The notes beneath the pieces are model-generated. The model searched no databases. It worked only from the letters and a program-made list of their open reading frames with translations, and had not been told where the DNA came from. Position numbers and translations under genes: made by a program. From a virus, in IMG/VR virus record IMGVR_UViG_3300014806_000004: a DNA stretch of 64,000 bases. One strand, given 5' to 3'. Positions 36,224 through 61,410 of the stretch are shown here, piece after piece (within the stretch, counting starts at the first letter, position 1; every line of letters starts with the position of its first letter).

Positions 36224-36256
36224 AAGGCTCTTGAGAATTATATCTCAAGAGCCTTT
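36224..36256. terminator. Hairpin between the chaperone gene and the tape-measure gene
   Basis: aaggctcttgagaATTATATctcaagagcctt. Confidence 0.4.
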
Positions 36257-36293: not shown

Positions 36294-36833
36294 TTAATCT
36301 TTTCCAACCACATCTTTAATTACTGATAAAGTTTCAAGATTCTCACCATTTTTAATTTTTTCCATTATATCAGTAATATATGTATCTAATCCAGAAGCAT
36401 TTTTATTCATCATTTGGATAATGCCTGCGGCAGAGTTATTATATCTTGCTATATCGCTTAAAGTATCTCTAACTAAGTCTTCAATAAAAGACAATTCATC
36501 TACTGGAATAGCACTTCTAACTGCATCAATAACACCATTAGTCTCTAGTGTATCATAAGTTTTGGCAATATTTTCATGCACATCTTCTTGCTCAAAAACA
36601 ATTCCACCATACCATCTGCAAATAGCAATAGCAAAATAAGTTTCTACTCTTACCGGACTAAAACACCCAGTCATCTCATCTATCGCTAAATCTGCGACAA
36701 AAGTAATAAGATTTGTTTTATCTGCAATCGGAAGATAATTAACCACAGATAAAATCTTATCTTCTCCAATTTTTACTTCTGTATATTTAATTTTAGGCTC
36801 CAAACCCAAATCTTTAAAAGTAATTTCACTCAT
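36294..36833 (-). CDS. Putative tail assembly chaperone (position immediately upstream of the tape-measure gene)
   Basis: 179-aa acidic TAG-free ORF with no direct homology call. The assignment rests on the conserved chaperone-then-TMP gene order. Confidence 0.45.
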   Translation of the reverse strand: MSEITFKDLGLEPKIKYTEVKIGEDKILSVVNYLPIADKTNLITFVADLAIDEMTGCFSPVRVETYFAIAICRWYGGIVFEQEDVHENIAKTYDTLETNGVIDAVRSAIPVDELSFIEDLVRDTLSDIARYNNSAAGIIQMMNKNASGLDTYITDIMEKIKNGENLETLSVIKDVVGKD

Positions 36834-36898
36834 TGTAAAAACTCCTTTATCTCATTTATATTTTTATTATACTAGAAAAATTAACTATTGTCAAGTTT

Positions 36899-38341
36899 TT
36901 AATATGCGTATTTAGACAATATATTATTGTTTAATGTAGCAGAAATTATTATTTTACTTATAACTTCATTAACTATATTACTACGAGTTAAAGCGTCTAA
37001 TACATTTGGACCAGTATTTCCATACCACTTATTACCAGTAGAATTTTCTCCCCCAATAGAAACTATTTCATGACCGCTATTGCGAACTATGTCATCACAA
37101 ATATTATTTATAATACGCTAAATAGAAAAAACTTTACCATTAACAATAAGTAACTGACCAAGATGTCCTTTAGAAGAAGCTAGACCGCCAGAAGAAACCC
37201 ATTCATTAAAAAATGAGGCGGCTACCGATGCACGAATATTATTAAAAGATTCTTCAAAATCTGATCCAGTGAATCTATGAGCAATCATATTATAAGCAAG
37301 ATATTTTTCTGGCTAACCAGAAAAATAATCCCCTACATTCATATTTGAAAAAACCTAAATTCTATTTGCAGATTTCTTTTTATTCTACCACTTTGCATTA
37401 ACATTAGCACTAATTTCTATATTAAATACTTGATTACCCTTAGTTACTGACAAATTAAAAACATCATTATTAAAAACTTTAACAGCACCTCTACTTCCAT
37501 TGTCAGAAGTAGTATTCTATCCTCTATCAACCCACTTTAATTTTCCACCAGACTACTTAATAGCAGTATCTAATATACTATCCGCAGTATTAATTCCAAT
37601 AGATATACCTTCTGCGACTATAGCTTGACTAATCTAATTTCCAATAACTTTTCTAAAAATATATGATATTGTATTAGCAAAAGATCTAGAGTTTACACTT
37701 CCACCTTCATTTAATCTTGAAACCGCTCTACTCAACGAATCTATTACTTCTTTCGCTACATTGATATCCCCATCTTCAATGGACATAACATAGTGCTACT
37801 AAGAATTATCTATCTAAAAACTAGTACCAATTAGCGATCTTCCTATCTAGGTTAAAGCATCAAGAACACTGACATTTATCATATTGGCTTTCATAAGAGC
37901 CTATATCAATAATCTAAAAAAATCATTAACTCTTTTTATATCAGGTGCCCCATTAGCCAACAAATTATTAAAATTGCCAGCCTATTGTAATATAGTATTA
38001 TAATTCTCAAAATTTACCTATCCACCGGCTAATTCAATTCCTTCATTGATACCTGCCGCGATCTAATCAAGAGTAGAATCCAATAAGGTACCAATCTATA
38101 AATCACTCAAAACTCTTAACCCACTCGCGGCAACTGGACCTTTAGACCGCATCTATTCTTGAATTGATACAATCTAAGTCTCAATTCCCGCAGTCTTCAT
38201 TTTACTCATTGCCTCTTGATACTATCCACTAAAGAGAATATTTGCGGATTCTACATCTCCATATTCTCTTAAATGACTACTATGATAAACAATATAATTT
38301 AAAGACCAACGCTATACATAATCATAAATATTAACATCCAT
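36899..38341 (-). CDS. Hypothetical structural protein (480 aa)
   Basis: RBS AAGGAGATATAGGAG then ATG 38341. The frame was verified against TAA 36899. About 25 in-frame TAGs. Confidence 0.35.
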
Positions 38342-38400
38342 ACTCCTATATCTCCTTATAAAAAGAAAAAGGGAGGACTTTATTAAGTCCTCCCTTAAAA

Positions 38401-39792
38401 TTAAATGGTGTCATCGCTAACAGAGACTAACTTATTGCGCATTTTTGCGCCAGAATAAGTGCTTGTGCTTTCTGCAAAACTGAGCTTATTATTAATAGTA
38501 TAACTCTTCTCAAAGTCTCCGTTAATCTTAGTAATCTTAGCTGTAATAGGAGTTGTATTACTCTCCTTAGTAAGAATTACTAATAGGCCATCTGCCAATT
38601 CTGCGCCATCTACGGTTTGAGTCTTTGTATTGCCCTCAATACTGTCATCAGTAGAGAAGTATTTCTCATATGCTGGGTTAGTTGTTACTACAGTATACTT
38701 GGTACTATCGCTCTCTACTGGAATTTGGAGGCTAATTTGTGCGGCTTCTGGAATTGTATCTCCATAAGCCTCAGTATCATAAGCCTTTCCTGTTACAATA
38801 CCAGTTACATCAAGTTCCGCCTCTGTGGCACTGTTAGAAACAAAATTTACAGTTACATCAGCAGCTTCACTCTCATAAGTACCAACATTCTCAGAGCATG
38901 GCTCACGAGAGCCTTCGGTTTCCCCAGTTTCATCAGTAATTACCTGAATAGCGGCAAGAACTTTATGAGTTTGATCAAACTTAGTGTAGTCTGGGAAAGC
39001 GTCCATTGTGAATGTAAAGGTAGATGGATCACCGTTAGCAGCCATGCTGAATGTGAAGTTACTCTGAACCTTACAGTTAGGAATAATAAATTCAGCAGGC
39101 ATATCTACGCCATCGCTCTCACGGCGGAATAGAGTAGAAGCTTCAAGATAATAGTTTCCACCAAACTTATCAGCGGTAATCTCAATCATCTGGGCGCCAC
39201 CAGTGCGCTTTACATAATAGTCAACTAAAACGATAGTACCAGATGGGAGCACTCCCGCATGAGAATAACAAGTTAAAGTTGATTTTCCGTCCTCTGTATA
39301 AGAAACAGAAACAGGAATGCATGGTTCAGCATTAACTTGACCATCATCTCCTAATACCATTACAAAAATGTCAGCAGAACGATGATACATTTCATTTTCA
39401 TGATCTGCAAATCCATTCCAGCAAGCTTTATCAGGAATTACGATAGTGTTAGCTGTTTCAACTTCTACCTGAGAAGTTTGATGAACGTAAATTGGAGCTT
39501 CTTTTGTTGCATCAAGCAGACCTGCACCAGAAAGAATAGAGAAGCTCTCTGGAGAAAGTAAAGCATCTTCCATTGTAAATGTTAGAGTACGCTCACCTTC
39601 CCAAGCAATCAATCTAGTATATCCACGTCCGCCCTGTGCGTATACAGTTGTTGCAGCACCTTCAAGAGTAGAGGTTCTTAAAGTGTCAAAGTACAAAACT
39701 GGTTCATTTTTATAGAACTTACGATTACCTAAAGTCTGATAGCTTTTGGCACGAAGTACTACATCGCAAATCTCACGAATACCAAAACGCAT
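38401..39792 (-). CDS. Major tail (tube) protein candidate with a C-terminal Ig-like extension
   Basis: 463-aa TAG-free ORF with RBS AAGGAGGAAT. It sits between the neck genes and the chaperone/TMP. The N-terminal MRFGIREICDVVL resembles siphovirus major tail proteins, and the C-terminal Thr-rich beta region looks Ig-like. Confidence 0.5.
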   Translation of the reverse strand: MRFGIREICDVVLRAKSYQTLGNRKFYKNEPVLYFDTLRTSTLEGAATTVYAQGGRGYTRLIAWEGERTLTFTMEDALLSPESFSILSGAGLLDATKEAPIYVHQTSQVEVETANTIVIPDKACWNGFADHENEMYHRSADIFVMVLGDDGQVNAEPCIPVSVSYTEDGKSTLTCYSHAGVLPSGTIVLVDYYVKRTGGAQMIEITADKFGGNYYLEASTLFRRESDGVDMPAEFIIPNCKVQSNFTFSMAANGDPSTFTFTMDAFPDYTKFDQTHKVLAAIQVITDETGETEGSREPCSENVGTYESEAADVTVNFVSNSATEAELDVTGIVTGKAYDTEAYGDTIPEAAQISLQIPVESDSTKYTVVTTNPAYEKYFSTDDSIEGNTKTQTVDGAELADGLLVILTKESNTTPITAKITKINGDFEKSYTINNKLSFAESTSTYSGAKMRNKLVSVSDDTI

Positions 39793-39806
39793 GAGCTAAT
39801 TCCTCC

Positions 39807-40532
39807 TTAATTTTTAGGATGTATATCTCGCATCCATGATTCAACTGGTTTATCTGGTTTGCCGCCCGCAAGACGAACCCGCAAGTCAACATCCCATTCA
39901 ATAAACGCATTATATCTTTCCATCAAATCAAATATCTAAAACATATTTAGATTTAAGCAATCCTCTAAACTCATTGTATTAGATCCGATTGTCAAGATAG
40001 ATATATAGCGTGTTAGAACACTCTCATTATTTCCTTTGCTTTTGATTTCTGCTACTTTTCGTCTACCGCGCATTAACTTTTCAGCAATTTCTTTAGCTCG
40101 GTCATTAGCTGGATTATAGATAACATTATTTCCCTAAAATAGACTGTTTACACACAAAATCTCTTTTAGTACGCTTTGAAAAATATCAAAGTTATTATCA
40201 TCTATTAACAAAGGCTAATTTTCTCCTTGCTTAGTTAAAATTATTGAATTTCTAGTTATTACTGGTATATAACCAGGAAATAATAATGTAAGTAGCATAA
40301 TAACAGCATTTTTTTTATCTTTATCCTGTGACTATTCTAACACCTTCATCAATACTTGAAAATTAGTTAATGATGATAAAAGAGTTTCGTCCTATATTAA
40401 TGATTCTTTATCTAAACATAAATATTGAACTGCCATAAAAAATTTTGTCTCTCCCATAAGAGCTATCTCTTTAATGACGGGAACGTGAATAGTAAGTTGT
40501 AATTCAGGAATGGGAATATCAATCCCGGCCAT
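39807..40532 (-). CDS. Hypothetical neck/tail-completion protein
   Basis: 241 aa with a verified frame and 6 in-frame TAGs. Its stop overlaps the RBS of the major tail protein gene. Confidence 0.35.
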
Positions 40533-40548
40533 TAAAGCTAGTCTATAA

Positions 40549-41085
40549 TCAAGCAAGCGGATTTACCTTATCTTCATTTCCGCGAATAGCAAGATATGTT
40601 AGAGACAAACCAGCAAATTCTTCATCATATATATATGGCGTAGCTGATACAAATTCTAGCTCTCCTATACCCGTTAAATGAGTTCCATCAAGCATTGAAT
40701 CTATCTCTCCCGCGATTCGATAAGGCCGTAAATCATAATCTCCCAAATCCCAATTATCATAATGACAAATAATATCAATACCAAATGTATTATCTCTATA
40801 TTCAGGATTTGTAGAATTTCTAACCATAGTGCCATAGATCAATCTTAAATAAGATTTTTCTGGTCTATCAACCTTTATCTTAGGAACAGCAGAAATCTAC
40901 TTAGTATCAATCATTTCCTTTATCATATCTCCTGTAACGGTCGGTTTACTTTTCCAATCTCTAGTATTATAAGTTAATAATTTCAAAACATTCTAATTAG
41001 AAAGTATTCTTTCCATAATCAGAGAAGCATCTTTCTACATACCTAACAAACTAGATTTAGGATACTCATAAGTATTTTTTTTCAT
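40549..41085 (-). CDS. Hypothetical neck protein
   Basis: ATG 41085. The ORF fragment 40549..40842 is extended 5' through 3 TAGs. TGA stop. Confidence 0.35.
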
Positions 41086-41100
41086 TTCAATTCACTCTCC

Positions 41101-42075
41101 TTAAAATAAAGATTCTACTACAATAACTTTTTCCAGTACAGTATTATCCTTCTTCCATACTAGAGTGAATTGACCATGAGTAGTTTTATTCCACACCAAC
41201 TAAACAGATTTATTTCCATTTGGACATAAAGTTACAGGAACATTCTTTTCCAATATTGACCAAGCTCCATTAGCTTCTTCTACAGAATAAGATTCTTCTA
41301 TCATTGGTTTAATAAAAGTCTCTCCCATAATCCCGCTATTTGGAGTAGGATCTTCTGGTTCGAATATTAAACCATCTTTCATACTATTTTCTATATCATC
41401 AGTATCTCTATTTATATAATCTTCTTCTGCACTCACTTCAATTACATTCTTCATACTTATATCATCTGGAGCCTAAACTTTCCAACATCTTCCAGCGAAC
41501 AAAAATTCACTATATCTATCAAAAGCATGAATAGTTTTTTCATTTCTTGGCATAAGTATGTTTAAGCTAAGATTAGGTTTATCCAATCTTTCTTGATTCT
41601 TCTAAATAGACTCGATTTGGGTTTCAACTGGACCTCGAATCGCAGCCCAAGTCTAACACCAATTCCCTTCCTAATCTTTAAACTTAATTCTATATCTACA
41701 ACGTCTTATTTCCCCTCTAAAATAAGCGTCCTCAGTTATTTCTTCAAGATAAATTATCCAATGAGTGCCAGTTTTTTTCCACTCAAAGACATCTCCAGGC
41801 GCATATTGATTAATATGATCTATGGAGATTATCTTATCATCATAGTCCTGTTTCACTTTATCTGGATTAATAAGCGCACGACACATAGGATAAATATTCA
41901 TATCTGGATCAACAGCATCTAACGTTGCATCTAAAACCTAGGTTGACTTCTAGACTAATTGAACAGTACAGGCTTGATAAGAATATAATAATGCTTTCTA
42001 AAGAGTTCTCCATTTATCTTTGATCATTCTATCTTCCTAGTGAATACCACCCTACCATTCAAATCTTTTTCGCAT
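41101..42075 (-). CDS. Hypothetical head-tail joining module protein (324 aa)
   Basis: It joins the ORF fragments 41671..41901 and 41200..41454 in the same frame. About 10 in-frame TAGs. Confidence 0.35.
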
Positions 42076-42079
42076 TAAT

Positions 42080-42388
42080 TCAAGATTCGTCATCTCTAAT
42101 CACCTACGCCAACAAATCAATACATCTAAAGACTGTTTTTCGATAAATCATAAAATCATTACAGACATTTGAAGATAACCCTTCCAGTTTAGACAATAAA
42201 ATAAGTCCCTCAACTCTATCTTTATACATTTTAACTAATCCACTAATTTCTTCTGTTATTACATTCAAATGATTTACCCAGTCTTCATTATTCTCTCTCA
42301 TTGGAATTAACTTCCATAACTAATTAATCAATCTCTTTAAATCCTACTCTTTTGTTTCTAATGGGAAATTAATATCATATTTATCCAT
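42080..42388 (-). CDS. Hypothetical protein
   Basis: ATG overlaps the connector stop (ATGGATAAATATG). 102 aa with 3 TAGs, ending at TGA. Confidence 0.3.
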
Positions 42389-42923
42389 CAAAAACACTCA
42401 TCTCTCTTAATGTTGACCAGTTTGATTTATAAGAGCCTTGATTATCAATTAGTTTTCTTCTTTTATAGAGACGCTGCATATGATGACTTTGACGTTCTGC
42501 TTCCTTTTTCAACTCTATTAATTTGGCTAAATGATTGGCCTAGGAAGTCATTTTAAAATCTGTTCCAGAATATTTCATTCTCGTCTATTCTATTGAAGCC
42601 ACCTGGCGTTGTAACCAAGTATTATACATTAGAATAGCAAGAATATTTATTTCTTCTGTCGTTAAATGTGCAGAAAAGGCTGGAATAATAGTTGCTATTC
42701 CAGTCTCTTCATCATTATTTTCTATATTGGTAAAACTGTATAATGGAAAACGAGGGAACTCAAAACCAGGAAGTGCATCCATTAGGATGTTATACAAATC
42801 TTTTTCAGTATCTTCCTATGTCCATTCCATATACATATCATCAGTAATCTTACCAAAAAATCTATCATAAATTTCTTCAAAGGGGGTCGGATCGCCCTAA
42901 ATTGGATATTTCTTATTATCCAT
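42381..42923 (-). CDS. Head-tail connector (gp6-like) candidate
   Basis: 180 aa that includes the ORF fragment 42585..42797. The C-terminal region reads ...EAERQSHHMQRLYKRRKLIDN. Four in-frame TAGs. Confidence 0.4.
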
Positions 42924-42942
42924 GGCTATAACCTCCCTTATA

Positions 42943-43476
42943 TCAATCAGAAATAGCTACTCTGCGTTTTGGAGCATCCTCACTTGTAGTTGACACTCTT
43001 CTTACAGGTTTCTCTTCCTTAGGATTCTTTTTATCATCTGCTGTTAATTCTAATGCTTTAGTAACATTAAATCCTAATTGTTTTTCCAAAGCATCTCTTT
43101 TAGACATATCATTTAAGGGAAGAGAAATAGCATGGGATTTAATCAGATCTTTGGTGCCTTCTGGAGCAAAATCAAGAGCATCCTTAAATTCATCTAAAGA
43201 ACACGTATTCATCCAAGAATCAATCTCTTCTTCTTTCATCCAATACTCTGGTTCAACCCTACCATTAATAAGATATTCAACAATCTCTCTATCATCCACA
43301 AGCAAGTAATTATAAATTAATTTGCGGCCTCCAGGTGTTTGTACTAGCTTTTCTAGTTCAGATACTTCAAGTTCCTTGTGTTCTCCAGGGTAAAACATAC
43401 GGCGCACGCCCAATTCAGGCAATCTATATACAACACGACCTGCGCTCTTATTATAAACAGTGCAACTATTTTTCAT
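42943..43476 (-). CDS. Hypothetical head protein (TAG-free)
   Basis: Intact 177-aa ORF ending at TGA, with an RBS upstream. Confidence 0.4.
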   Translation of the reverse strand: MKNSCTVYNKSAGRVVYRLPELGVRRMFYPGEHKELEVSELEKLVQTPGGRKLIYNYLLVDDREIVEYLINGRVEPEYWMKEEEIDSWMNTCSLDEFKDALDFAPEGTKDLIKSHAISLPLNDMSKRDALEKQLGFNVTKALELTADDKKNPKEEKPVRRVSTTSEDAPKRRVAISD

Positions 43477-43540
43477 AATTTTTATCTCCTTTTTCTCAAT
43501 AAATAAAAGGGGATAGGGATATTTCCCTATCCCCTGTCAA

Positions 43541-44593
43541 TTAACCATTATTTGGATTTGGGTTAGTATTATCAAGCTCGCCTTGAAGTTCAGTATCAAC
43601 ATAAGAAAAGATGTTATTCGCCATCATTACACCGACACCAACCTTACGGTAAACCTGAATATCACGAGACCAGTCGTCATTATCATCGCGTTCGCGCACG
43701 TGGGTAGTACCTTCAAAAGCAACTTTTACAGGACGGCTCTCAGCTCCACCAGGAATAATCCAAGCATAACCTGGATCAATCATCTTTTTGGAGTTAGTCT
43801 CATCCTCAAGAGTTTGAGGTAGAATTACCACTCTAGTTCCCTTGTAATTTGCAAGATAACCAGTTCCCCAATACTGATCTCTCATATTGTCAGAAATCCA
43901 AGCATCATTGTCTGGAATCATTTTTACTGCAAACTCACGAGTGCAATAAATAGTTGGTTGACCATAAGCAGTAGCAGTATTTACAAGATAATCCATAGTT
44001 GGTTCGTCAAAACCAGCAACAGCACAACGGTTTGCTGCGGGAAGCTGATTGATAGAACCCATAAGAGCTTGAGCAATCTCTCTATAAATAAGCTCTTGCA
44101 TACCCTCTGTTACAATTTGAGTAAGTTCTGCAAAGTTTACTCTTCCATCAAGGAACTCCTCAAATCCGATACGAGCAGCTCCACCAATGGCGCTTGTTCC
44201 AACTTCGAAGCTCTCAGAACCAAGCTTAAAGGTCTCATACACACCAGCAAGCCCCACACGAGTAATGAATTGCTTAGCGCGAGTAAGTCCAGTTCTACGA
44301 GTAAATACAGGCTTGTCGCCTTGTGCGAAAGTTCTAATCTCAGCAAAATTGCCATAAGAATTGAGTAAACGATTAGGAACAACTTCATCCATAGTCTGCT
44401 CAATTAAAGAGAATAGAGTATTTTTATTTTCTCTATAAAGTTCATCTGTGCCAACAAATTCATTTAGCTCATTACGCAAAGTAGTATTTAAAGCGTCATA
44501 GCTAAAAGACTCTCCTTGATAGCTATAGGTACCAGAAGGATTTGCATTAGCGACAGTTTTCATTAAACTAAGTAAATTAGCTTTATCTAACAT
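43541..44593 (-). CDS. Major capsid protein candidate
   Basis: Intact 350-aa TAG-free ORF with RBS GGAGTGAAGAAG. It lies directly downstream of the scaffold-like gene. Its composition and size fit an HK97-fold capsid protein. No family-level match was made by eye. Confidence 0.5.
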   Translation of the reverse strand: MLDKANLLSLMKTVANANPSGTYSYQGESFSYDALNTTLRNELNEFVGTDELYRENKNTLFSLIEQTMDEVVPNRLLNSYGNFAEIRTFAQGDKPVFTRRTGLTRAKQFITRVGLAGVYETFKLGSESFEVGTSAIGGAARIGFEEFLDGRVNFAELTQIVTEGMQELIYREIAQALMGSINQLPAANRCAVAGFDEPTMDYLVNTATAYGQPTIYCTREFAVKMIPDNDAWISDNMRDQYWGTGYLANYKGTRVVILPQTLEDETNSKKMIDPGYAWIIPGGAESRPVKVAFEGTTHVRERDDNDDWSRDIQVYRKVGVGVMMANNIFSYVDTELQGELDNTNPNPNNG

Positions 44594-44612
44594 TCTTCTT
44601 CACTCCTTCCAA

Positions 44613-45302
44613 TTAACCTACACGCTGTACTTTTACACCAGGTTGAAGATCTGGCATAGTATACACTTTTACTACTGCAAAGATAGGATCTAAATCTCCA
44701 CCTTTAGCAGAAGTTTCAGTATCTTTAGTTAAATATCCATCAGTATCAATCTTTAGACGATCGCCTACTGCAAGCTCTCCGGCATTAGCTTTAATGGTAT
44801 TAGTAGTCCAAATATCACCAATACTAATCTTAATTACGCGAGGTACCATTTTAGTTCCTTCTGGCATCAATGCAGGATAAGTAAATGTCTCCATATTTTT
44901 CTTATATGCTACATCACTACCTTCGCGTACAGCTTCTCCGGTATAATCACTTATTGTAGCAAGTGTAGAAACTGTTTGTCCAATTGGACTATATACACGA
45001 GCATTATAATTATCCTTAATCATAGCAAAATCAGCATCAGTTTCGCGATCTCTATAAATCTTTACTTCATTAAATACCATCATCCAGGCGCCAGAAGTAG
45101 CTTCCGTACTAAAATCGCATACGCCTTTTGCATAATCATACTTTACAAATTGACCGTTCTCAAGAATCTCAATAGCGCTAGCTGCGGGAAGCTGAGCATA
45201 TACTTGACCATTTCTTGGAGCGGAAAGATGGTTTGGCTCCACTTGACCATATCCATACTGGACAAAAGTGGCATTACCTAATCTTTTAGAACTCTTAGCC
45301 AT
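44613..45302 (-). CDS. Capsid-associated protein (second capsid or decoration protein?)
   Basis: Intact 229-aa TAG-free ORF with RBS AAGGAGGAT. It lies between the scaffold and capsid-protein candidates. Confidence 0.4.
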   Translation of the reverse strand: MAKSSKRLGNATFVQYGYGQVEPNHLSAPRNGQVYAQLPAASAIEILENGQFVKYDYAKGVCDFSTEATSGAWMMVFNEVKIYRDRETDADFAMIKDNYNARVYSPIGQTVSTLATISDYTGEAVREGSDVAYKKNMETFTYPALMPEGTKMVPRVIKISIGDIWTTNTIKANAGELAVGDRLKIDTDGYLTKDTETSAKGGDLDPIFAVVKVYTMPDLQPGVKVQRVG

Positions 45303-45315: not shown

Positions 45316-46545
45316 TTAAATACTGCTTTTAGCAGTTTCACGAATTGCTTTTACCCAATCAGGAACGTTGTCAGTTTCTGGATTATTTAAATTAAAAAGT
45401 CCCTTTGGGGTATTATCTTCTTCTTTATGCTTTTCTTCAAGATTGAAATTTACTTTATTTCTAACACAAAGAATAGATAATTTAGCTTCAATATCATCTA
45501 AAGAATAAGTATCAATATGCTCAGCGACATCTTTCTTATCCTCATCACTTAACATATAGAAACTATCAATCATTTGTTGTTTACTTTGACGTTCAGCATT
45601 AAGTTTAAATTCTCTTAGTGCTGTAACTTCATTATCTAGATTAGTTTTTTCTTGCTCAAGAGCAGAATATTTAGTCTCTAAATCGGTAAACTTTGTAAGT
45701 AACTCTGTATATTCTGTTACTTCTTCAAGATTATACTTCTTACCTTGAGGAGTATCCTTTTTCTTTTCTTTTTCTCCCTCTGGGGCTGGAGCAGGATTTT
45801 CAGAAGTCTTTTTCTTCTTATCCTCTTCGGGATTTGGAGTATTTTTCTCGAAATCAGTAGGTACTTTCTTCTCATTCTCCATAGGTTCTTGAGAGCCTCC
45901 TTTATTTAAAGTTTCTTTTAATTGATCCATCATAGAATACATCATAGTTTTAAGTTTCTAAAACTCTTGATTATTCTCTAAAGAAAATTGAGAACTAAAT
46001 TGAGCTCCCTCGAAACAAGGCTCAACATTTTCTCCGAGAACACATAATTTCTCAATCAATGCCTCATTGTAGATAAAGATTCTTTCATTTGTTTTATCAT
46101 CTTTTGTCCAAAATCCTGATTGATTTTCTTCATTCAATTCCATAGAATGGTTATTGCCATTCTCCAGGATTCTTTTAGATTCTGGATAAACGCTAGTCCA
46201 AATGTATACATCTGTCACAAGATATTCTCTTTCTACGCCTTCATCATTGAACTTCTAAAACCATACATTTGCATTTGTAGGAACAAATCCATATGGTCTT
46301 GTGGTATCAACAATAGCAAACTTACCATCTCGAACAATAATTTCTCTGTTGTGGCCTTCAAAATCATTTATTTCATGATTAAAATATCCAACAATAGGAC
46401 TTCCTGGTAGTTTACGTCCCATTTCCGCGGCCACTTCTTTGGTAATTACAGTATGGTTGCGGTTAGGTTGCTACCCAACATAGCAAACTTTGCAGACACC
46501 TTTACTAACTAGAGGAGAAATCTAAGTGTTCTAAATATATTCCAT
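45316..46545 (-). CDS. Scaffolding protein candidate: N-terminal globular domain plus acidic coiled-coil C-terminus
   Basis: ATG 46545 is in frame with the ORF fragments 45958..46218 and 45316..45945. Six in-frame TAGs. The C-terminal 200 aa are charged and helical (KEKKKDTPQGKKYNLEEVTEYTELLTKFTDLETKYSALEQEK...). Confidence 0.5.
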
Positions 46546-52686: not shown

Positions 52687-53028
52687 ATGTTCTTCGATGA
52701 ACCTTACAATGCACTACCAAAAAACGCATAGTATTATTTTAATATTTTAATTGTATGTATCGCTGTATCTCCATAGTATGCCCAAGAGACATTTCAATAG
52801 AACATTATTAATATGTGGGATATATAGGGAATTACAGACGGGAGACCTTATGCTGTCCATATTTATACAACACATCATATAAATAAAGATTTTTAGTACG
52901 AATTATAGTGCTTACCTCATTAGGTGTTAGAAGTAGACAGCGAATAGGGTATATCTTTTTATGATATGATAGATTATTATACTGATGATCCATGGAGGCT
53001 AGAACCAGAGAATGACGAAATAGATTAA
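52687..53028 (+). CDS. TAG-dense small ORF (113 codons, 9 of them TAG) overlapping the folD start
   Basis: A strong RBS TAGGAGGAA lies 7 nt before ATG 52687. The frame stays open to TAA 53026 only if TAG is sense. Whether it is a real gene is uncertain. Confidence 0.3.
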
Positions 53029-53800
53029 TATAAAAGAGTATTTTAAACAAGAGATAGAGAAATTGCTGGTTGATAGATCTGCAATTCCTTCTCTCATGAT
53101 TATCGACGCGACGGCCTAGGATCCCGCAAATCAAATTTATATTCGTAATAAAATAAAAGACTTTAATGCTCTTGGTTGGAAAGCAGAAGTATTTAGAGCT
53201 AATAGTTCAGTAGAATTAAAGTTATTTTTAGACCATGCGAAAGATTGGGATGCTGTAATAGTCCAAATGCCAATAGCAGACGGGATTGATTTCAATTATA
53301 ATCAAATACCTGTTTCTAAAGATGCAGATGGATTAAATCCAATGAGTAATATTACTCCAGCAACAGTAAGAGGAATTATAGATTATTTGGATAAATGTGG
53401 CTTTAACTACGAAGGTAAATCTGCTGTTGTTTTGGGAAGAAGCGATATTGTAGGAAAGCCAATGGCTAAAGCTCTTCTAGATAGAAATATGACCGTATCA
53501 ATGTGTCACAGTAAAACAGATATAAACACAAAACTCTATTTAACAAGACAAGCGGATTTAATTATCTCTGCGGTAGGAAAATTTAGCTTAACAAGAGAAG
53601 CCTGTCCTAATGCTATTGTTATAGATGTTGGTATTCGTAGAAATGAAGCAGGAATTATTCTTGGAGACTTTGTAGAAATTGATGAAATTGCAAGTAAAAA
53701 TAAGGTATGGTCAACTCCTGTCCCCGGAGGAGTAGGTCTATTAACAAGATTGGGGTTGATGAAAAATTGTTTATAGTTAGCGAAACAGGCACAAAGATAA
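53012..53800 (+). CDS. folD: Bifunctional methylene-THF dehydrogenase/cyclohydrolase
   Basis: It has DATA-TAG-DPANQIYIRNK (compare E. coli VGSNPASQIYVASK), DAVIVQMPIADG, KDADGLNP, GRSDIVGKPMAKALL and TPVPGGVGLLT. Two internal TAGs, plus an apparent TAG stop at 53774 followed 8 codons later by a TAATG overlap with the next gene. Confidence 0.75.
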
Positions 53801-54147
53801 TGAAATTTTCGGAAGATTTTGACAAATATGCTAAAGATATATTGCATATTCAAAACCCCTTTAAAAAATGGTTTAGAAGGTTGGATGAGGCCATCTCTAT
53901 TAGTGATGGAACTATAACTGTGGATGTAGACACCTCAAATCAAATAGATAGAGAAACAAAAGTAAACAGAGAAGAATGGATTAAGTTAAGAGATAGGTAT
54001 GTCGCAGAGAGAATACTGCGGGAACTTGGGTATGAAGTTCTATTAACCTCGTCTTATTTCGAATACTATCCTGATGCTATTCCTTGTGAAGGGGCTTCAG
54101 GGCAATGTACAATAGACTGTAGAATGAATGGATGTAAATATGAGTAA
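53800..54147 (+). CDS. Hypothetical protein with a Cys-rich C-terminus
   Basis: The ATG overlaps the TAA of the read-through folD. Confidence 0.4.
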   Translation: MKFSEDFDKYAKDILHIQNPFKKWFRRLDEAISISDGTITVDVDTSNQIDRETKVNREEWIKLRDRYVAERILRELGYEVLLTSSYFEYYPDAIPCEGASGQCTIDCRMNGCKYE

Positions 54148-54148
54148 A

Positions 54149-54328
54149 ATGTGTCCTTGCATTGATTATTGTTATAATAGATTCGGTCGGTAGTACACAC
54201 CAGACTGCGACAATACTTGCGATTATGCAATTAAAGTTAAAGAAAATAAAATGCTTAAAGAATATTTAAAGAGATTAGCGGCGGAAACAAATAGTTTACA
54301 CACTTTATTTGAAGATTGGGATAATTAA
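54149..54328 (+). CDS. Small Cys-rich protein (one TAG)
   Basis: MCPCIDYCYNRFGR-TAG-YTPDCDNTCDYAIK... Confidence 0.3.
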
Positions 54329-54372
54329 ATTATCCACTTCTGCCCAACCGCACGGAAGAAAGGAAACTGCAA

Positions 54373-55230
54373 ATGAAACGAGAAGAGCTCAAACAACACG
54401 CGCAATCGCATTACGCAGACATTAAAGTGAGACTCAAGGAAGATACAGATCGCGCAATTATAAACTCTGAAATTTTTGGCCCCAATCTTCCTTTTCCGCT
54501 AAAACCGCAAGAAACCTACCATAATACCTTTTATCTTAAAGACCAAGATAGCGTATCCTGTCTATTTGGTTTAACCGATCGGAGCAAGACCGCAATCTTA
54601 AATTATGCAAGCTATAAACATCCAGGTGGTTACTTCCTTGGAGGCAGCTCTGCACAAGAAGAGGCATTGTGTCACGAAAGCAACCTTTATCCTATTCTTC
54701 TTGCTTTTGATGATACTTATTACGCATGGAATAGACAGAGACTAAATCGAGCCCTATATCTTGATAGAGCTATCTATACTCCTGATGTAGTATTTGAAAA
54801 AGACAATGGTAGAAAATTAGCTGATGTAATTACTTGTGCTTCTCCTAATTATAGAACAGCACATACTTATCAGCAAGTTCCTCTTTCTCTAAACAATAGG
54901 ATAATGGAAGAGAGAATTAATTTTATGTATCGGATTGCCGAGGCTAAGGGAGTGGAAAATTTAATCGCGGGAGCCTGGGGCTGTGGTGTTTTTATGCAAG
55001 ATCCATCAACGGTCGCCACCTTGCTCGTAAGCGCAGCCCGCAATTATAATATTCCAAATATTTATTTTGCAATTCCCGCAATTTTAGAATTTTCTTGGAG
55101 GTTTTGGAAAAATGTTCAAGCAATTAATTATCGCAAGACGAGATTTAAATATGTCTCCAGGGAAACTTGCCGCACAAGTTTCCCATGCTTCTATTGCTTT
55201 TCTTTTGGAAAAGTTATATTGGGGAAGTAA
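54373..55230 (+). CDS. Macrodomain protein of the bacterial PARG-like (DUF2263/TIGR02452) type
   Basis: NYASYKHPGGYFLGGSSAQEEALCHESNLY fits the PARG signature GGG-x6-8-QEE. GAWGCGVFMQDPSTVA is also present. The 3' 119 nt overlap the next gene in another frame. Confidence 0.5.
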   Translation: MKREELKQHAQSHYADIKVRLKEDTDRAIINSEIFGPNLPFPLKPQETYHNTFYLKDQDSVSCLFGLTDRSKTAILNYASYKHPGGYFLGGSSAQEEALCHESNLYPILLAFDDTYYAWNRQRLNRALYLDRAIYTPDVVFEKDNGRKLADVITCASPNYRTAHTYQQVPLSLNNRIMEERINFMYRIAEAKGVENLIAGAWGCGVFMQDPSTVATLLVSAARNYNIPNIYFAIPAILEFSWRFWKNVQAINYRKTRFKYVSRETCRTSFPCFYCFSFGKVILGK

Positions 55231-55549
55231 AGAAGTTGTTAAAGAAAGAGACGGTCTTATGTATCATATAGGAATAAGCCTCGATAGAGACTTATTCCAT
55301 AACTGGATAGCGGAAGCGGAGACCAAAGTAGTTTGTAGAGCGAAGAATAAGAATGATTTGCTAAAAGCTGTTGCAATGGCTAAAGAATTAGGATGGGAAG
55401 AGAATAAAGACTACTGGCTTATTTATGATGCTTGTAGGACGGAGTTAGAGCGTGAAGGCCCGGAAGGGACTTTGACGTGTATTGGATTTAGGCCAATGGA
55501 GGCGGAAGAAATTGATAAAATTGGGAAGAAGTATCAGCTTTATAATTAA
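55112..55549 (+). CDS. pth2: Peptidyl-tRNA hydrolase, PTH2 family
   Basis: It has LIIARRDLNMSPGKLAAQVSHASIAF (Pth2 catalytic region), ...KVVCRAKN..LL.AVAMAKELG and LIYDACRTELE..GTLTCIGFRP. Confidence 0.6.
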   Translation: MFKQLIIARRDLNMSPGKLAAQVSHASIAFLLEKLYWGSKEVVKERDGLMYHIGISLDRDLFHNWIAEAETKVVCRAKNKNDLLKAVAMAKELGWEENKDYWLIYDACRTELEREGPEGTLTCIGFRPMEAEEIDKIGKKYQLYN

Positions 55550-55712
55550 CATAATATTAATCGTATTGTTGTTAACTGCTTGCGGAAAGGAGAACGATCG
55601 TTATCCAAGGCTAGAGTATATTCCTACAATGTGGAGATCTGATGCGACTAATATTAAACTAGAGGATGGATATAATTTGATTTTTAATTTTGAAGCAACC
55701 GACGATGGATAA
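55512..55712 (+). CDS. Putative small lipoprotein
   Basis: Signal peptide with lipobox LLLTAC|GK. The start codon is uncertain (in-frame TTG candidates at 55482, 55512 and 55521). It overlaps the pth2 3' end. Confidence 0.3.
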   Translation: MIKLGRSISFIINIILIVLLLTACGKENDRYPRLEYIPTMWRSDATNIKLEDGYNLIFNFEATDDG

Positions 55713-55727
55713 GATGCGGAGAGAAGA

Positions 55728-55752
55728 AGTGAGTTCTTCTCTCTTTTTCGTT
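55728..55752 (+). terminator. Rho-independent terminator
   Basis: ggagagaagaaGTGAGttcttctctc followed by TTTTT. Confidence 0.55.
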
Positions 55753-55955
55753 ATTGAGATTGAAAAGTCGATTTAGATTTTGAAATGGCGTGGCAGAACG
55801 ATTTTACAAAAAAATTTCCAGTTTTTCCCAAAATACACGCCCCTCTTTCACATGGTAAAGTATTGAAGTGTAGTTGGCCTCTTTCACTCGTTAAAGTACG
55901 AAAGCAAGAAAGCACGCCCCTAAAGGAATACGCGCGCGTAAAGGGTTTATGCAAA

Positions 55956-55986
55956 CTGCACAACAAGATGTTATTTATTTTGTGCA
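55956..55986. promoter_or_regulatory. Palindromic operator pair TGCACAA-N16-TTGTGCAA
   Basis: The same inverted pair recurs at 59088-59119, 62216-62247, 63827-63857 and 63863-63903, with degenerate copies at 57655-57686 and 61059-61091. Confidence 0.5.
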
Positions 55987-56113
55987 AAAGAGAGAGAAAG
56001 AAATTTCAAAAAAACTATTGACAAGTGAGCATTTTGGTGGTAAACTGGACTTGTCCAGTAGGACAGAGACAAAAGCACGGCACTTTGAAAATTAAAAAAT
56101 TTCAAAAAAGGTA

Positions 56114-56142
56114 TTGACAAACTGCTAAAGGTTTGATACAAT
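56114..56142 (+). promoter_or_regulatory. Sigma-70-type promoter (TTGACA-17-TGaTACAAT). A second similar promoter lies at 56019, each preceded by an A-tract
   Basis: aaatttcaaaaaaggtaTTGACAaactgctaaaggtttgaTACAAT. The upstream copy is aaatttcaaaaaaactaTTGACAagtg. Confidence 0.5.
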
Positions 56143-56195
56143 ACAGACAGAACAAAAGAGAACCACATCACAAAAAGAAAGGGAGTCAAAAGAGT

Positions 56196-56570
56196 ATGAA
56201 AAAGATTGATTTTACCAATGAAGATCGAGCCATTATTATGGAGTATATGGCGGCTAAGATGGCTAAGTCTGCGGCGGAGGCGGCGGAGAAAGCAGCTAAG
56301 GCTAAGGCTAAAAAGCTATTCTCCAGATTAGGTAAGGCTTTTAAGGCTACGGACAAAACAAGTTATCTATATGGCACGGTACAAATGCAGGGTAAGGCGA
56401 AAGCGGTGGTATATAAAGAAACTACCGCAAAAGGAACGGTTGACTGGAAAGCCTATGCTATGGCATTAGGCGGGACAAAGGCCGAAGCAGAGCAATTCCG
56501 CAGACCTTCCGATGTTCGTACCTCTTTTGATTGGGCGACAAAGACCCAAGAAGAAGAAATTAGAGGATAA
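56196..56570 (+). CDS. Hypothetical basic Ala/Lys-rich protein
   Basis: RBS AAGGGAG, ATG 56196. It lies downstream of the tandem promoters. Confidence 0.4.
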   Translation: MKKIDFTNEDRAIIMEYMAAKMAKSAAEAAEKAAKAKAKKLFSRLGKAFKATDKTSYLYGTVQMQGKAKAVVYKETTAKGTVDWKAYAMALGGTKAEAEQFRRPSDVRTSFDWATKTQEEEIRG

Positions 56571-56574
56571 CAGT

Positions 56575-56610
56575 TTATAAACCCTGCCTTGCAAAACACA
56601 AGGCAAGGCA
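56575..56610 (+). terminator. Rho-independent terminator
   Basis: aaccctgccttgcAAAACACAAggcaaggcagggtt. Confidence 0.6.
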
Positions 56611-56644
56611 GGGTTATAATAATTAAAAGAAAGGGGCATACTAT

Positions 56645-56791
56645 ATGTATCAGTTACAAGTTTTAGCCAATGAGAAAATGCGCTATTATGAACCATTCAC
56701 CCTTTCAATGGCAAGATGGAAAGCCAGTCACGAGATAGTCAATCCTAATCATTGGATTGTGGATTTATCCAGTGGAGAAATCGTAGATTAA
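56645..56791 (+). CDS. Hypothetical small protein (48 aa)
   Basis: RBS AAAGGGG precedes ATG 56645. Confidence 0.3.
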   Translation: MYQLQVLANEKMRYYEPFTLSMARWKASHEIVNPNHWIVDLSSGEIVD

Positions 56792-56837
56792 AAAGAAGCT
56801 GACCTAACGGCTATACGGGGAGAAAGGATAAAAGACT

Positions 56838-57140
56838 ATGAACAATTATATTAAGTGGTTCGTTGGGCCTACTTTTAGAAAGCGTGAATTTATTAAACTT
56901 TTGCGGTATAAGATGAATGTGCGTTCCGCAGAGGTAGAGGACGGCATCATCTTAGACCTGGATGCTTTTAATGCCATGCGAGTGGCCTATATGCCACACT
57001 GGGCTTATATCAATAGAAAGTTTATCAATAGTAATCTGCATACCAGAATTGCAAGCGAAGACGAATATAAGGTTGCTATGATCGGAGATACAATCGGCAC
57101 TGAATGGGTTAAAGAACAGGAGGCAAAGAAATGGAAATGA
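56838..57140 (+). CDS. Hypothetical protein
   Basis: Intact ORF with RBS AAAGGATAAAAG. Confidence 0.4.
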   Translation: MNNYIKWFVGPTFRKREFIKLLRYKMNVRSAEVEDGIILDLDAFNAMRVAYMPHWAYINRKFINSNLHTRIASEDEYKVAMIGDTIGTEWVKEQEAKKWK

Positions 57141-57283
57141 GAATTATTAAGCGGATAGGAGGCGGCATTTGTGCCGCTCTCCTACTCTGGACAGTTCTTA
57201 GTTGGGCTGATATAGTGGCGGATAACTGTGAGCCAAACCCACAGCACAGCGAATATAATATGTTCGTTCTCATGACTAAATAA
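57137..57283 (+). CDS. Small membrane protein (48 aa)
   Basis: ATGA overlap with the upstream stop, plus a hydrophobic helix GGGICAALLLWTVLSW. Confidence 0.3.
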   Translation: MRIIKRIGGGICAALLLWTVLSWADIVADNCEPNPQHSEYNMFVLMTK

Positions 57284-57296
57284 TAGGAGAAAAAAA

Positions 57297-57530
57297 ATGT
57301 ATAGAGGGACTTATATCGACGCCATGGGCCGCAAGCGCAGAGAGATGGGATATTTCAGTCTTAATAAGCCCACTCTGAATAAACTCCATATACCAGTAAT
57401 TGTCCAAGCGAGAGATAAGACAAGTGCGGCGAATAAAATCAATAGGAAATATAAGTTGCGTATAAGTCCCAGCAATCTGCGGGAGGTGCCGATGGGCACG
57501 GGCTATCTCATGGAAACCATGGAGCTGTAA
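57297..57530 (+). CDS. Hypothetical protein
   Basis: RBS GGAG precedes the ORF, which is followed by the terminator at 57545-57576. Confidence 0.4.
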   Translation: MYRGTYIDAMGRKRREMGYFSLNKPTLNKLHIPVIVQARDKTSAANKINRKYKLRISPSNLREVPMGTGYLMETMEL

Positions 57531-57544
57531 AGGAATAATACTTG

Positions 57545-57576
57545 ACTGGCAATCTGCACAAAGATTGCCAGTCATT
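57545..57576 (+). terminator. Rho-independent terminator
   Basis: tgactggcaatcTGCACAAAGgattgccagtca followed by TTTTT. Confidence 0.55.
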
Positions 57577-57798
57577 TTTATGCACTTTTCCATATTGACT
57601 TTTCGCCGGGCCGCCAGCGTGCGCCGCGGCCCGAATTTTTATTTATTCGGCAATTTCAACAATTATATGACCGAAAGTCTGTGCAATTCGACGAAAGTTT
57701 TTCTCCCGAAATTACTTGACATTCCTCTTGTCATGTGTTATTATATACTTGTCCAGAGGGGCAAGGTCACAAAAAGAATTTGAAAGGAAGTAAAAGAA

Positions 57799-58038
57799 AT
57801 GACTTTGAAAATGATTGCAGGTCTGCTTTCTCCGCTCGCAGAAGATACCATGTTCTTTGACGGGAAAGGGGTCGAAATTATCAATGAGAATACCCAAGCT
57901 CATTACCATGAGCTACCTGATCACAAGATAACCCTGGGAGGAGACGTCATTGAGGCGTCTAAGGAATGGGTGCTGGGACTTCCGGTAACTGGTATTCAAG
58001 CAAGAGGCAACAATCTAATCATTTATGTAGATGGTTAA
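57799..58038 (+). CDS. Hypothetical protein
   Basis: Promoter TTGACA(57715)-17-TATTAT lies upstream. The ORF is followed by the hairpin gggagtggaggCCACAAAcctccactccc (58047-58078). Confidence 0.4.
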   Translation: MTLKMIAGLLSPLAEDTMFFDGKGVEIINENTQAHYHELPDHKITLGGDVIEASKEWVLGLPVTGIQARGNNLIIYVDG

Positions 58039-58100
58039 GAAAACTTGCGGGAGTGGAGGCCACAAACCTCCACTCCCCATGATAAAAAGGAGGAATAAAT

Positions 58101-58316
58101 ATGATTGCTGTTATTAAATTTGAAAGTGTAGAAAAATCTGCGGAGTTTGGAGACACAATTTGTAATATGGCTGGTTGGTGTTTGAATCATCCTCTTAATT
58201 CCAATGTTACCGGCTGTGTTCGTACTCTTGATTTTAATACCGGCGATAAACAAGATAGAGCCTTATATAATTATCTGCTAAAAATTGGAGCTTTCGAGGA
58301 GGTGGAACTAAAGTGA
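58101..58316 (+). CDS. Hypothetical protein
   Basis: RBS AAAGGAGG precedes ATG 58101. Confidence 0.4.
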   Translation: MIAVIKFESVEKSAEFGDTICNMAGWCLNHPLNSNVTGCVRTLDFNTGDKQDRALYNYLLKIGAFEEVELK

Positions 58317-58724
58317 GTATTGAGCGTTTACCGCATACATATCCTATCGGTTCCACTGTTTGGACAAATAAGGGATATGGCACAGTTCTACTTCACATTG
58401 GTAAATACCATCTGGTTTGGTTACAGAGATTAGGGCTGGCGTAATGCCGGCCCTATTGATTTTTTCAAAAAAATATATTATAATAATTATAGAAAAATAA
58501 AGAAAGGAGTTTTTCTAATGACCTTAGAAGTGCTGTGAAAGCACTCGCGGTTATTTTGGAGTTCTGTTTGAACTAGGATTCTTGTAAAAATTGTCCTATG
58601 TCTCAGTTCTGCCAGAAAATGCCTTGCGAGTGGTAAATGTTCCTTCCGATTGTTCTAAATCGGCGATTCCCGTGATGGAGTCGTTTTTCGCACGAGCCTA
58701 GGTCACTAGAATTTATTTATCAAA

Positions 58725-58958
58725 ATGCAAGAAACTACTTTCTCTCGCAAATTGGATTCAAGTGGTAGAATTATGATTCCGATTCGTTTGCGTGAACAAA
58801 TGGGACTTACTTCCGGTTAGGAATACTATTTCACTACTATGGTAAAAGATGGCAGAAAATACATCTGCATTGACTGCGGGTCGGTTAATTCTTCGCTTGA
58901 AGAAGCTATGAAAATTATCCAAGCAAACGGATTAAAGATTGTTGAAAATGCCGATTAA
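58725..58958 (+). CDS. AbrB/MazE-type (SpoVT_AbrB domain) small DNA-binding protein with one in-frame TAG
   Basis: KLDSSGRIMIPIRLREQMGLTSG-TAG-EYYF is the swapped-hairpin AbrB N-domain. It is preceded by a ~170-nt hairpin-rich leader. Confidence 0.45.
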
Positions 58959-61404: not shown

Positions 61405-61410
61405 TATACA

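Follow-up and report, generated by a model that had tools for sequence, protein, structure and literature searches.

Depletion of the reassigned TAG codon from capsid, tail tube and neighbouring genes within the late operon of a glutamine-recoded siphophage and its relatives

The 64,000-nucleotide (nt) stretch of viral DNA analyzed here (IMG/VR virus record IMGVR_UViG_3300014806_000004; in full, the window) derives from a large siphophage of the phAss-1 / SPbeta-like group, in which TAG specifies glutamine (Gln) and is read by a phage tRNA(CUA). Five genes of its late operon, including those for the major capsid protein and the major tail (tube) protein, lack in-frame TAG altogether, whereas their neighbours on the same strand use the codon freely. 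The deficit recurs in related lineages and is accompanied, in four of the five genes, by the codon signature of translational selection. We consider it likely that the TAG-free set results from efficiency selection against a suppressor-dependent codon in the genes of highest expression. The features on which the argument turns are the following (lengths in amino acids, aa).

14229-52729, minus strand: late (virion) operon of 26 genes, 21 of them with TAG at about 52% of Gln codons.
36294-36833, minus strand: 179-aa acidic protein, TAG-free, encoded just upstream of the tape-measure gene (phrog_30570, function unknown).
36899-38341, minus strand: 480-aa gene between the tube and 179-aa genes, with the top TAG load of the operon (20 TAG, 77% of its Gln codons).
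38401-39792, minus strand: major tail (tube) protein, 463 aa, TAG-free, with an N-terminal tube domain and C-terminal beta domains.
39807-42977, minus strand: five neck (head-tail connector) genes, lying between TAG-free blocks, with 26 TAG.
42943-43476, minus strand: 177-aa protein, TAG-free in the window and under weaker constraint, downstream of the capsid gene.
43541-44593, minus strand: TAG-free gene for the 350-aa major capsid protein, which has homologues annotated as such in Bacillus phages and phAss-1.
44613-45302, minus strand: 229-aa all-beta protein, TAG-free and codon-optimised, encoded just upstream of the capsid gene.
45316-46545, minus strand: scaffold-like protein, 409 aa, with a Lys/Glu-rich coiled-coil C-terminal half and intermediate TAG use (TAG/Gln 0.29 in the window).

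All five TAG-free genes can be read with the standard code as intact open reading frames (ORFs). Of their 1,398 codons 37 encode Gln, 24 as CAA and 13 as CAG, whereas the remaining 21 late genes have 277 TAG in 11,006 codons (one in every 40, with a range of 0.8-4.2%). Across those 21 genes the share of TAG among Gln codons is homogeneous (heterogeneity chi-square 24.2, 20 degrees of freedom, p = 0.23), and set against the zero counts in the five this makes the distribution a true two-class one. That all five would lack TAG by chance has a probability of 3e-16 when calculated from the per-codon rate, 1.4e-12 when conditioned on their Gln codons and 1.7e-12 under a beta-binomial fit.

A sequence-only reading that preceded this work had described virion genes as TAG-free amid TAG-bearing flanks and had judged such bimodality unlikely to arise by chance, and the exact counts agree on both points. 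It had also spoken of about 1,400 consecutive codons; these are in fact distributed over three blocks, split by the 480-aa gene and by the neck genes. The claim that the TAG-free runs go beyond what Gln content predicts holds for the 463-aa gene (P = 1.4e-4), the 350-aa gene (0 TAG among 13 Gln codons, P = 6.9e-5) and the 229-aa gene (0 among 8, P = 2.7e-3), the only ones that are individually significant in the window. It fails there for the 179- and 177-aa genes, which have two Gln codons each (no TAG, P = 0.23 each) and reach significance only after relatives are pooled. At the opposite extreme, the same reading had singled out a RuvC-like gene (2183-2662, 9 TAG in 159 codons) and a small ORF (52687-53028, 8 TAG in 113 codons) as exceptionally TAG-rich, which is what we find; the small ORF has the third-position substitution bias of real coding sequence.

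Several observations establish the recoding. With a G + C content of 34.7%, the window contains ORFs of at least 100 aa that sum to 30.0 kb under the standard code and to 79.1 kb when TAG is taken as a sense codon, compared to only 44.3 kb when TGA is; reading TAG as sense, and not TGA, yields the 38-kb same-strand late operon. Within this operon, the order of TerS, TerL, portal and tape-measure genes was assigned through synteny with phAss-1. In the nearest sister lineage (lineage B) 104 of 128 window TAG positions (81%) align with TAG, CAA or CAG, and in more distant lineages the replacement spectrum of TAG sites equals that of CAA/CAG sites. Alignment and shared substitution spectrum thus identify TAG as glutamine, and the window's own genes are predicted to be decoded in this way.

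The affiliation of the window is indicated by its capsid protein, which shares 52% identity with that of phAss-1 (OQ749652), 36% with Enterococcus phage EF1 and large Enterococcus siphophages and 22-24% with annotated major capsid proteins of Bacillus phages. Head-module gene order and capsid and tail homology are common to the window and the phAss-1 / SPbeta-like group, as seen in the table of orthologues, and the tape-measure protein, at 2,851 aa, has the length of about 3,000 aa that is a trait of the phAss-1 group. Megablast returned no close DNA match to the window among deposited phages, which places it outside the genus of phAss-1.

Homology to the annotated capsid proteins supports the assignment of the 350-aa protein, proposed as a capsid candidate from sequence alone, and the tail-tube fold supports that of the 463-aa protein as the major tail protein. 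Homologues of the tube protein abound in public gut data and form a very large family (at least 8,000 candidates, essentially all of which passed). Database homologues carry the precomputed Pfam domain PF27173; a Pfam copy without that family found nothing. For the five TAG-free proteins, sequence and profile searches of Pfam, NCBIfam and PDB gave no match. The 229-aa protein is a candidate auxiliary or decoration capsid protein; its AlphaFold model, with a predicted local distance difference test (pLDDT) score of 49, was of too low confidence for a structure search. For the 480-aa protein, no family match was obtained in profile searches.

To follow the pattern beyond one genome, viral contigs were scanned with the capsid protein, giving 30 loci at 100, 97, 79, 75, 65, 64 and 55% identity, all of them TAG-recoded to differing degrees. 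Orthologues of every late gene were then mapped and TAG was counted in the aligned parts, with the gene set fixed on the window beforehand. Counts pooled over nine lineage representatives (capsid identity 52-100%) are as follows, with TAG given over all Gln codons.

Capsid gene (350 aa): 0/121, expected 37.2.
Tail tube gene (463 aa): 0/65, expected 23.2.
229-aa gene: 1/85, expected 25.5.
177-aa gene: 4/47, expected 13.7 (P = 4e-4), with three of the TAG in L012 and one in L022.
179-aa gene: 0/28, expected 6.6 (P = 3e-4).
Scaffold-like gene (45316-46545): 16/121, expected 38.3.
480-aa gene: 68/123, expected 45.6, enriched.
241-aa neck gene (39807-40532, minus strand): 47/99, expected 29.9, enriched.

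The five-gene set is TAG-depleted in each lineage representative (Fisher p from 5e-13 to 0.04). Relatives that carry TAG freely in the capsid or tube gene would have spoken against a constraint on these genes; over the nine representatives there is not a single TAG in either. TAG use is graded, being lowest in the capsid and tube genes, which are equal, and rising through the 229-aa, 177-aa and scaffold-like genes to the rest. In lineages C-H just 4-17% of window TAG positions are TAG, and since TAG turns over this fast, the repeated deficits are largely independent. Protein conservation does not explain the absence of TAG, as TerL and portal are as conserved as the TAG-free genes, or more so, and yet bear TAG. 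Both TAG-enriched genes, of 480 and 241 aa, flank the tube gene, and they are enriched in every lineage that has them.

Variation among close relatives adds to this picture. In strains whose capsid protein is 99-100% identical to that of the window, and whose genes differ from those of the window at 2-3.5% of codons, two independent CAG-to-TAG changes occurred in the capsid gene, at codon 240 (L003) and codon 313 (L004/L005). Such polymorphisms, absent over longer divergence, suggest that TAG is viable in the capsid gene but does not persist, and is slightly deleterious rather than lethal, although the numbers are small: the CAG-to-TAG events seen within the species are too few to judge whether they are over-represented.

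These data bear directly on chance, low Gln content or recent transfer from a phage with the standard code as explanations. In the window, chance would suffice for the 179-aa gene and for the 177-aa gene, the five genes are somewhat G + C-richer and the window is mosaic elsewhere. Against this stand the joint probability given the Gln codons and the fact that the orthologues are present in all lineages, have diverged in parallel with their flanks, and are TAG-free there too; furthermore, the codon usage of the five genes is closest to that of the other late genes. On the strength of the joint probability, the table of orthologues and the pooled lineage deficits, we rejected both chance and horizontal acquisition, which we regard as extremely improbable.

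Synonymous codons of highly expressed genes, including phage structural genes, are under translational selection, with the strongest bias in capsid and tail genes. In line with this, all eight lineages show one and the same shift of the TAG-free genes away from the other genes of the operon: CGT, GCT, GGT/GGC, CTT, C-ending two-fold codons (NNC), AAG, GAG and CAG are increased, and ATA, AGA, CGA, TTA, GGA/GGG and TCA are decreased. The sign is the same in 7/7 further lineages for CGT, AAG, GAG, CAG, TTC and AAC (up) and for ATA, AGA, CGA, TTA, GGA and TCA (down). In the pooled lineages the most avoided codon of all is TAG, with an observed/expected ratio of 0.03, followed by CGA (0.13), AGG (0.14), CGG (0.16) and ATA (0.18).

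A codon-bias score, trained on lineages C-H with Gln codons excluded, gave -0.006 for the capsid gene, -0.033 for the tube gene, -0.13 for the 229-aa gene and -0.18 for both the scaffold-like and the 177-aa gene, compared to -0.21 to -0.40, mostly about -0.30, for the remaining window genes; the 179-aa gene scored -0.28. Four of the five TAG-free genes thus carry a translational-selection codon signature and the 179-aa gene does not. Among TAG-bearing genes, the score and TAG/Gln are negatively correlated (rho = -0.57, p = 0.0065). The strength of Shine-Dalgarno sites does not split the two classes, and many TAG-bearing genes have strong sites too.

The preference for CGT, GCT, GGT and C-ending two-fold codons and the avoidance of ATA, AGA/AGG, CGA/CGG and GGG are those of general translational selection. 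In contrast to it, the top avoided 'synonymous' codon is here a reassigned stop, whose misreading ends the protein instead of slowing its synthesis.

Leucine codons, which permit synonymous T and C at the first position, provide a neutral yardstick for the frequency of TAG. In ordinary late genes TAG:CAG is 5.9, compared to 9.5 for TTG:CTG and 5.5 for TTA:CTA; by this measure a neutral TAG would make up about 64% of Gln codons, and 52% is observed. For the five TAG-free genes the yardstick predicts 68% TAG, and there is none. The agreement with the leucine ratios implies that TAG behaves as a near-neutral codon under AT pressure in the ordinary late genes.

This result argues against the proposal, also put forward in the sequence-only reading, that TAG load serves as a timing or dosage gate, in which TAG would be actively enriched to throttle low-copy late genes while the TAG-free genes are merely ungated. 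It has been proposed that recoded stops are selectively enriched in some gene families and depleted in others (Borges et al., bioRxiv 10.1101/2021.08.26.457843), and the excess of TAG in the 480- and 241-aa families on either side of the tube gene would be in keeping with it. However, TAG/Gln is homogeneous over the 21 genes whatever their expected copy number, and TAG:CAG is no higher than composition predicts. TAG is also spread uniformly along genes, the first TAG is not significantly early, and the +4 base after TAG equals background, so that neither position nor context gives a signal. A TAG frequency near the neutral AT expectation makes a deliberate gate unneeded. The two enriched families leave it slight room, and we regard it as very improbable.

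From these observations, we propose that AT-biased mutation (CAG to TAG) drove TAG to about half of the Gln codons in ordinary late genes, where each TAG would still carry a cost. A single suppressor tRNA would have to compete with host release factor 1 at every TAG; some ribosomes would terminate there, resulting in wasted synthesis and the release of truncated subunits. The cost would scale with the amount of protein and would be selectable only in genes whose products are made in hundreds of copies per particle, namely the capsid, tube and 229-aa genes, with a weaker effect on the 177-aa and scaffold-like genes. From such genes TAG would be purged alongside other poor codons (ATA, AGA/AGG, CGA/CGG, TCA and GGG).

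Truncated fragments of polymerising proteins may add to this cost. Were it the principal one, truncated capsid, tube, decoration and scaffold fragments would co-assemble with the intact subunits and spoil particles. The depleted set does consist of known or suspected polymerising proteins, with the scaffold-like gene intermediate, and low-copy oligomers (portal, TerL and neck) bear TAG freely. Portal and neck proteins assemble too, however, and are undepleted, and the joint avoidance of ATA, AGA, CGA and further codons is expected from translational selection and not from poisoning alone. Sequence does not separate poisoning from efficiency; as the sole explanation we consider it unlikely.

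Efficiency selection finds additional support in the transcription signals of the operon. The three strongest terminator-like hairpins in the region of 36-46.7 kb lie directly 3' of the capsid, tube and 179-aa genes.

43508-43535, minus strand: terminator-like hairpin directly after the capsid stop codon, with a 12-bp stem, 7 GC pairs and a T-run.
38369-38396, minus strand: terminator-like hairpin directly after the tube gene, with a 12-bp stem and a T-run.
36224-36255, minus strand: terminator-like hairpin after the 179-aa gene, with a 13-bp stem.
36866-36894, minus strand: sigma-70 consensus promoter TTGACA-17-TATAAT (12/12 matches) upstream of the 179-aa gene.

The hairpins are conserved in structure and not in sequence. 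The one after the capsid gene, with differing sequence, is found at the same site in 8/10 lineage representatives, the one after the tube gene in lineages A, B, F and G, and the one after the 179-aa gene in all lineages that have this gene. Such a hairpin is missing after the portal and neck genes and after those of 229 and 177 aa, and lineage F is the only one to have it after TerL. The expected effect of the hairpins would be a more stable, or relatively more abundant, upstream transcript.

The 179-aa gene differs from the other four. Its promoter is located 32 nt before the start codon and about 20 nt before the ribosome-binding site, and its position is conserved, with a consensus or near-consensus promoter, in six lineages (A, B, C, D, F and G). 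With its own sigma-70-type promoter and its own terminator amid the late genes, it has a moron-like architecture, and its expression would be separate from late transcription. Its position before the tape-measure gene suggests a tail assembly chaperone, and the conservation of that position fits a chaperone better than an accessory gene, although family searches gave no match that backs this label. The lack of codon optimisation, together with its own promoter and terminator, indicates that this gene is probably TAG-free for a different cause. It may be expressed without suppressor from a host-type promoter, like the TAG-free early block described below, and it probably groups with that class and not with the capsid group.

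53707-63741, plus strand: 18 small ORFs (2,148 codons) readable with the standard code; TAG serves in them neither as a sense codon nor as a stop.

The stops in this block are 12 TAA and 6 TGA, and over all frames the TAG trinucleotide occurs 99 times compared to 209 expected. Its G + C content is 0.40-0.43, and its codon usage is distinct from that of both classes of late genes. In line with the published early/late model, the block would represent early genes. We considered whether the TAG-free late genes share its codon usage and rejected this; their relative synonymous codon usage is closer to that of the other late genes (r = 0.80) than to that of the early block (r = 0.67).

A constraint of timing is the usual explanation for TAG-free early genes. 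Applied to the operon, it would mean that the TAG-free late genes are translated before or without the suppressor tRNA, so that any TAG in them would be a true stop. The plus strand block matches the published early/late model (bioRxiv 10.1101/2021.08.26.457843), and for the 179-aa gene, with its perfect, conserved promoter, own terminator and unoptimised codons, timing is the better reading. It does not suit the others: there is no promoter-like site at the capsid, tube and 229-aa genes, which lie 13-65 nt from TAG-rich neighbours on the same strand, and their codon usage sides with the late class. In addition, TAG at codon 240 or 313 of the capsid gene would be lethal without suppressor, yet it is carried by near-identical strains, and the depletion in the scaffold-like gene is graded and not absolute. 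For the set as a whole, timing is therefore an improbable account.

The window itself contains no tRNA genes, and there is no tRNA(CUA) in the 10 kb to its left either. Same-lineage contigs carry 26-28 tRNAs in an array that begins about 16 kb to the right of the window; Gln(UUG) and Gln(CUG) are among them, and none has a CUA anticodon. A small cluster, Ser(UGA)-tRNA(CUA)-Leu(CAA)-Cys(GCA), follows 6 kb beyond this main array in metagenome contigs, with the tRNA(CUA) at 10433-10507 of L227 and 8212-8286 of L229, contigs that are 97-99.6% identical to window-lineage contigs. An orthologue of the phAss-1 suppressor, this tRNA(CUA) measures 75-76 nt and has G73 and a mismatch of U1 with U72. An unpaired 1-72 position and G73 are marks of glutamine tRNAs in E. 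coli, and by these features the tRNA(CUA) of the same-lineage contigs is predicted to be a Gln-type suppressor.

A sister clade (about 80% dUTPase identity) encodes a different tRNA(CUA) of 91 nt with a long extra arm, located between tRNA-Asp and tRNA-Ala of a homologous array.

L082 2965-3055, L080 7911-8001 and L048 4235-4325: sister-clade 91-nt tRNA(CUA).
L224 10054-10649 and 7487-7802, L222 14695-15010 and L221 15413-15733: sites of transfer-messenger RNA (tmRNA) and ROOL RNA.

The window lineage has nothing at the corresponding site, its own 75-nt suppressor being located elsewhere, and the longer sister-clade tRNA pattern found no match in this lineage. A further tRNA-like gene, with a 42-44-nt insertion inside the anticodon arm (L221 18101-18217, L224 10916-11034, L225 from 17558), stands directly after tRNA-Gln(CUG), scores 50 bits with the Rfam tRNA model and is shared by lineages A and B. 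It is not recognised by ARAGORN or, if introns are permitted, is given inconsistent anticodons; the copy in L221 was considered as a candidate suppressor. The array also encodes a tmRNA with the tag peptide DNDYFENYLAA and, in lineage B, a full-length ROOL RNA (350 bits) between two tRNA-Gln genes. In some strains the tRNA-Asp gene is split by an ORF-bearing insertion of about 470 nt (L208 18216-19079), which may be an intron or homing element; in others it is intact (compare L212 6901-6977).

It is conceivable, though we hold it to be doubtful, that the TAG-free set constitutes a conserved suppressor-independent tier, in which the bulk blocks (capsid, decoration-like and tube proteins) would be made at full rate in any state of the code switch. 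Each low-copy part with a role in starting or finishing assembly (terminase, portal, neck, tape measure, baseplate and fibres) would require the single tRNA(CUA), whose supply would then be a translational checkpoint tying the completion of infectious particles to the code switch, with the 480- and 241-aa genes as the most sensitive sensors.

The idea that selection frees the highest-expression genes from suppression, which the sequence-only reading had also raised, is strengthened by replication across lineages, the codon signature, the identity of the capsid and tube proteins and the hairpins; it probably does not extend to the 179-aa gene. Several points weigh against efficiency selection or limit its weight. 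The label 'most abundant' derives from the general stoichiometry of tailed phages, and in PHROGs the five proteins match only entries for 'virion structural protein' or unknown function. The labels that the sequence-only reading gave to the 229- and 177-aa proteins (head proteins) and to the 179-aa protein (tail chaperone) are to be taken as putative. Codon optimisation was measured with a score trained on related lineages. Since the nine representatives share ancestry, their independence is overstated by the pooled P values. Tolerance of as many as 98 TAG in the tape-measure gene implies efficient suppression and a small cost for each TAG. That a late gene can be TAG-free without codon optimisation is seen in the 179-aa gene. 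Experience with other recoded phages is divided as well: in crAss-like phages a tail-tube family was reported as enriched in the recoded codon, the opposite of the tube gene in the window (Borges et al., bioRxiv 10.1101/2021.08.26.457843), and in-frame stops in TerL, the capsid gene and portal have been used as markers of recoding (Yutin et al., 2021, PMC7886860), so a TAG-free capsid gene is no general rule among recoded phages.

Other features of the window touch less directly on the operon. A serine recombinase / DNA invertase gene (6748-7224, minus strand; phrog_125, E = 9e-31) contains 5 in-frame TAG and may bear on lifestyle or an invertible segment. A complete diversity-generating retroelement is present at 9227-13088 on the plus strand.

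9227-10855, plus strand: retroelement target gene, 542 aa, with Ig-like repeats.
10937-11431, plus strand: retroelement small accessory gene.
11871-13088, plus strand: retroelement reverse transcriptase (phrog_1423, E = 4e-84).

All three genes contain in-frame TAG. The variable repeat (10739-10841) differs from the template repeat (11462-11564) at 14/103 positions, every one of them a template adenine. Compared with its closest contigs (L002/L186 and L181), the window is mosaic: its capsid protein is 100% identical to that of L002, while ORF 52687-53028 is only 73% identical (DNA) to the same contig, and an exonuclease-like protein (62514-63338) shares 97% identity with a lineage-B-like contig compared to 90% with the L002 contig.

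Gut phages using code 15 (TAG to Gln) show a partition between early and late genes (Yutin et al., 2021, PMC7886860; Borges et al., bioRxiv 10.1101/2021.08.26.457843; Peters et al., 2022, PMC9523058), and insertion of an amino acid at UAG has been addressed by peptide mass spectrometry (PMC9523058). Similar to these phages, in the window lineage in-frame TAG restores conserved late genes, TAG aligns with Gln, there is a phage tRNA(CUA) and an early block uses the standard code. In contrast to the published early/late split, the split described here runs inside one late operon, tracks expected abundance, is graded and is conserved across lineages. A previous comparison of recoded and standard codons per gene family considered enrichment only, and reported it for lysis genes as well as for a tail-tube family of crAss-like phages (Borges et al., bioRxiv 10.1101/2021.08.26.457843).

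The closest published genome is that of phAss-1, of the proposed Phassvirus group, a published TAG-to-Gln phage with tRNA(CUA) genes for whose relatives Clostridia are suspected as the host group (Babkin et al., 2023, PMC10607447; OQ749652). It resembles the window in its capsid protein, head-module order, very long tape-measure gene, the meaning of TAG and the orthologous 75-nt tRNA(CUA). The two represent different lineages, with TAG at 52% of Gln codons in the compared genes of the window and at 21% in those of phAss-1, and their genome arrangement differs. The supplementary table for phAss-1 lists no suppressor TAG in the capsid gene, in the gene on either side of it or in the tube orthologue (named 'tail fiber protein' there), a point on which the paper is silent (PMC10607447). 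For an amber-reassigned crAss-like phage it was noted that the major capsid gene 'shows no alternative codon usage', and pressure for efficient translation was suggested (bioRxiv 10.64898/2026.08.21.746148); that case concerns one gene of one genome in an unrelated podophage order, and comes with no statistics, relatives or other abundant proteins. The phenomenon has thus been noted earlier only in passing. What we add are the statistics, replication across lineages, the graded series, the link to codon bias and the neutral yardstick; to a specialist the mechanism would seem plausible, not surprising.

There are also practical consequences. Standard-code gene callers recover the TAG-free capsid and tube genes intact, which biases marker-gene surveys, and the per-gene ratio TAG/(TAG+CAA+CAG) could be a proxy, obtainable from DNA alone, for how genes rank in expression in recoded phages that are uncultured.

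The reason for stop-codon reassignment in phages is an open question, for which the regulation of late and lysis genes is the leading idea. The locus described here offers an internal and conserved readout of the cost of a reassigned codon. The exclusion of TAG from the genes of the proteins expected to be most abundant, in every lineage examined, argues that suppression is imperfect even in heavily recoded phages, and that the distribution of recoded codons is in part the product of ordinary translational selection and not of purpose-built regulation.

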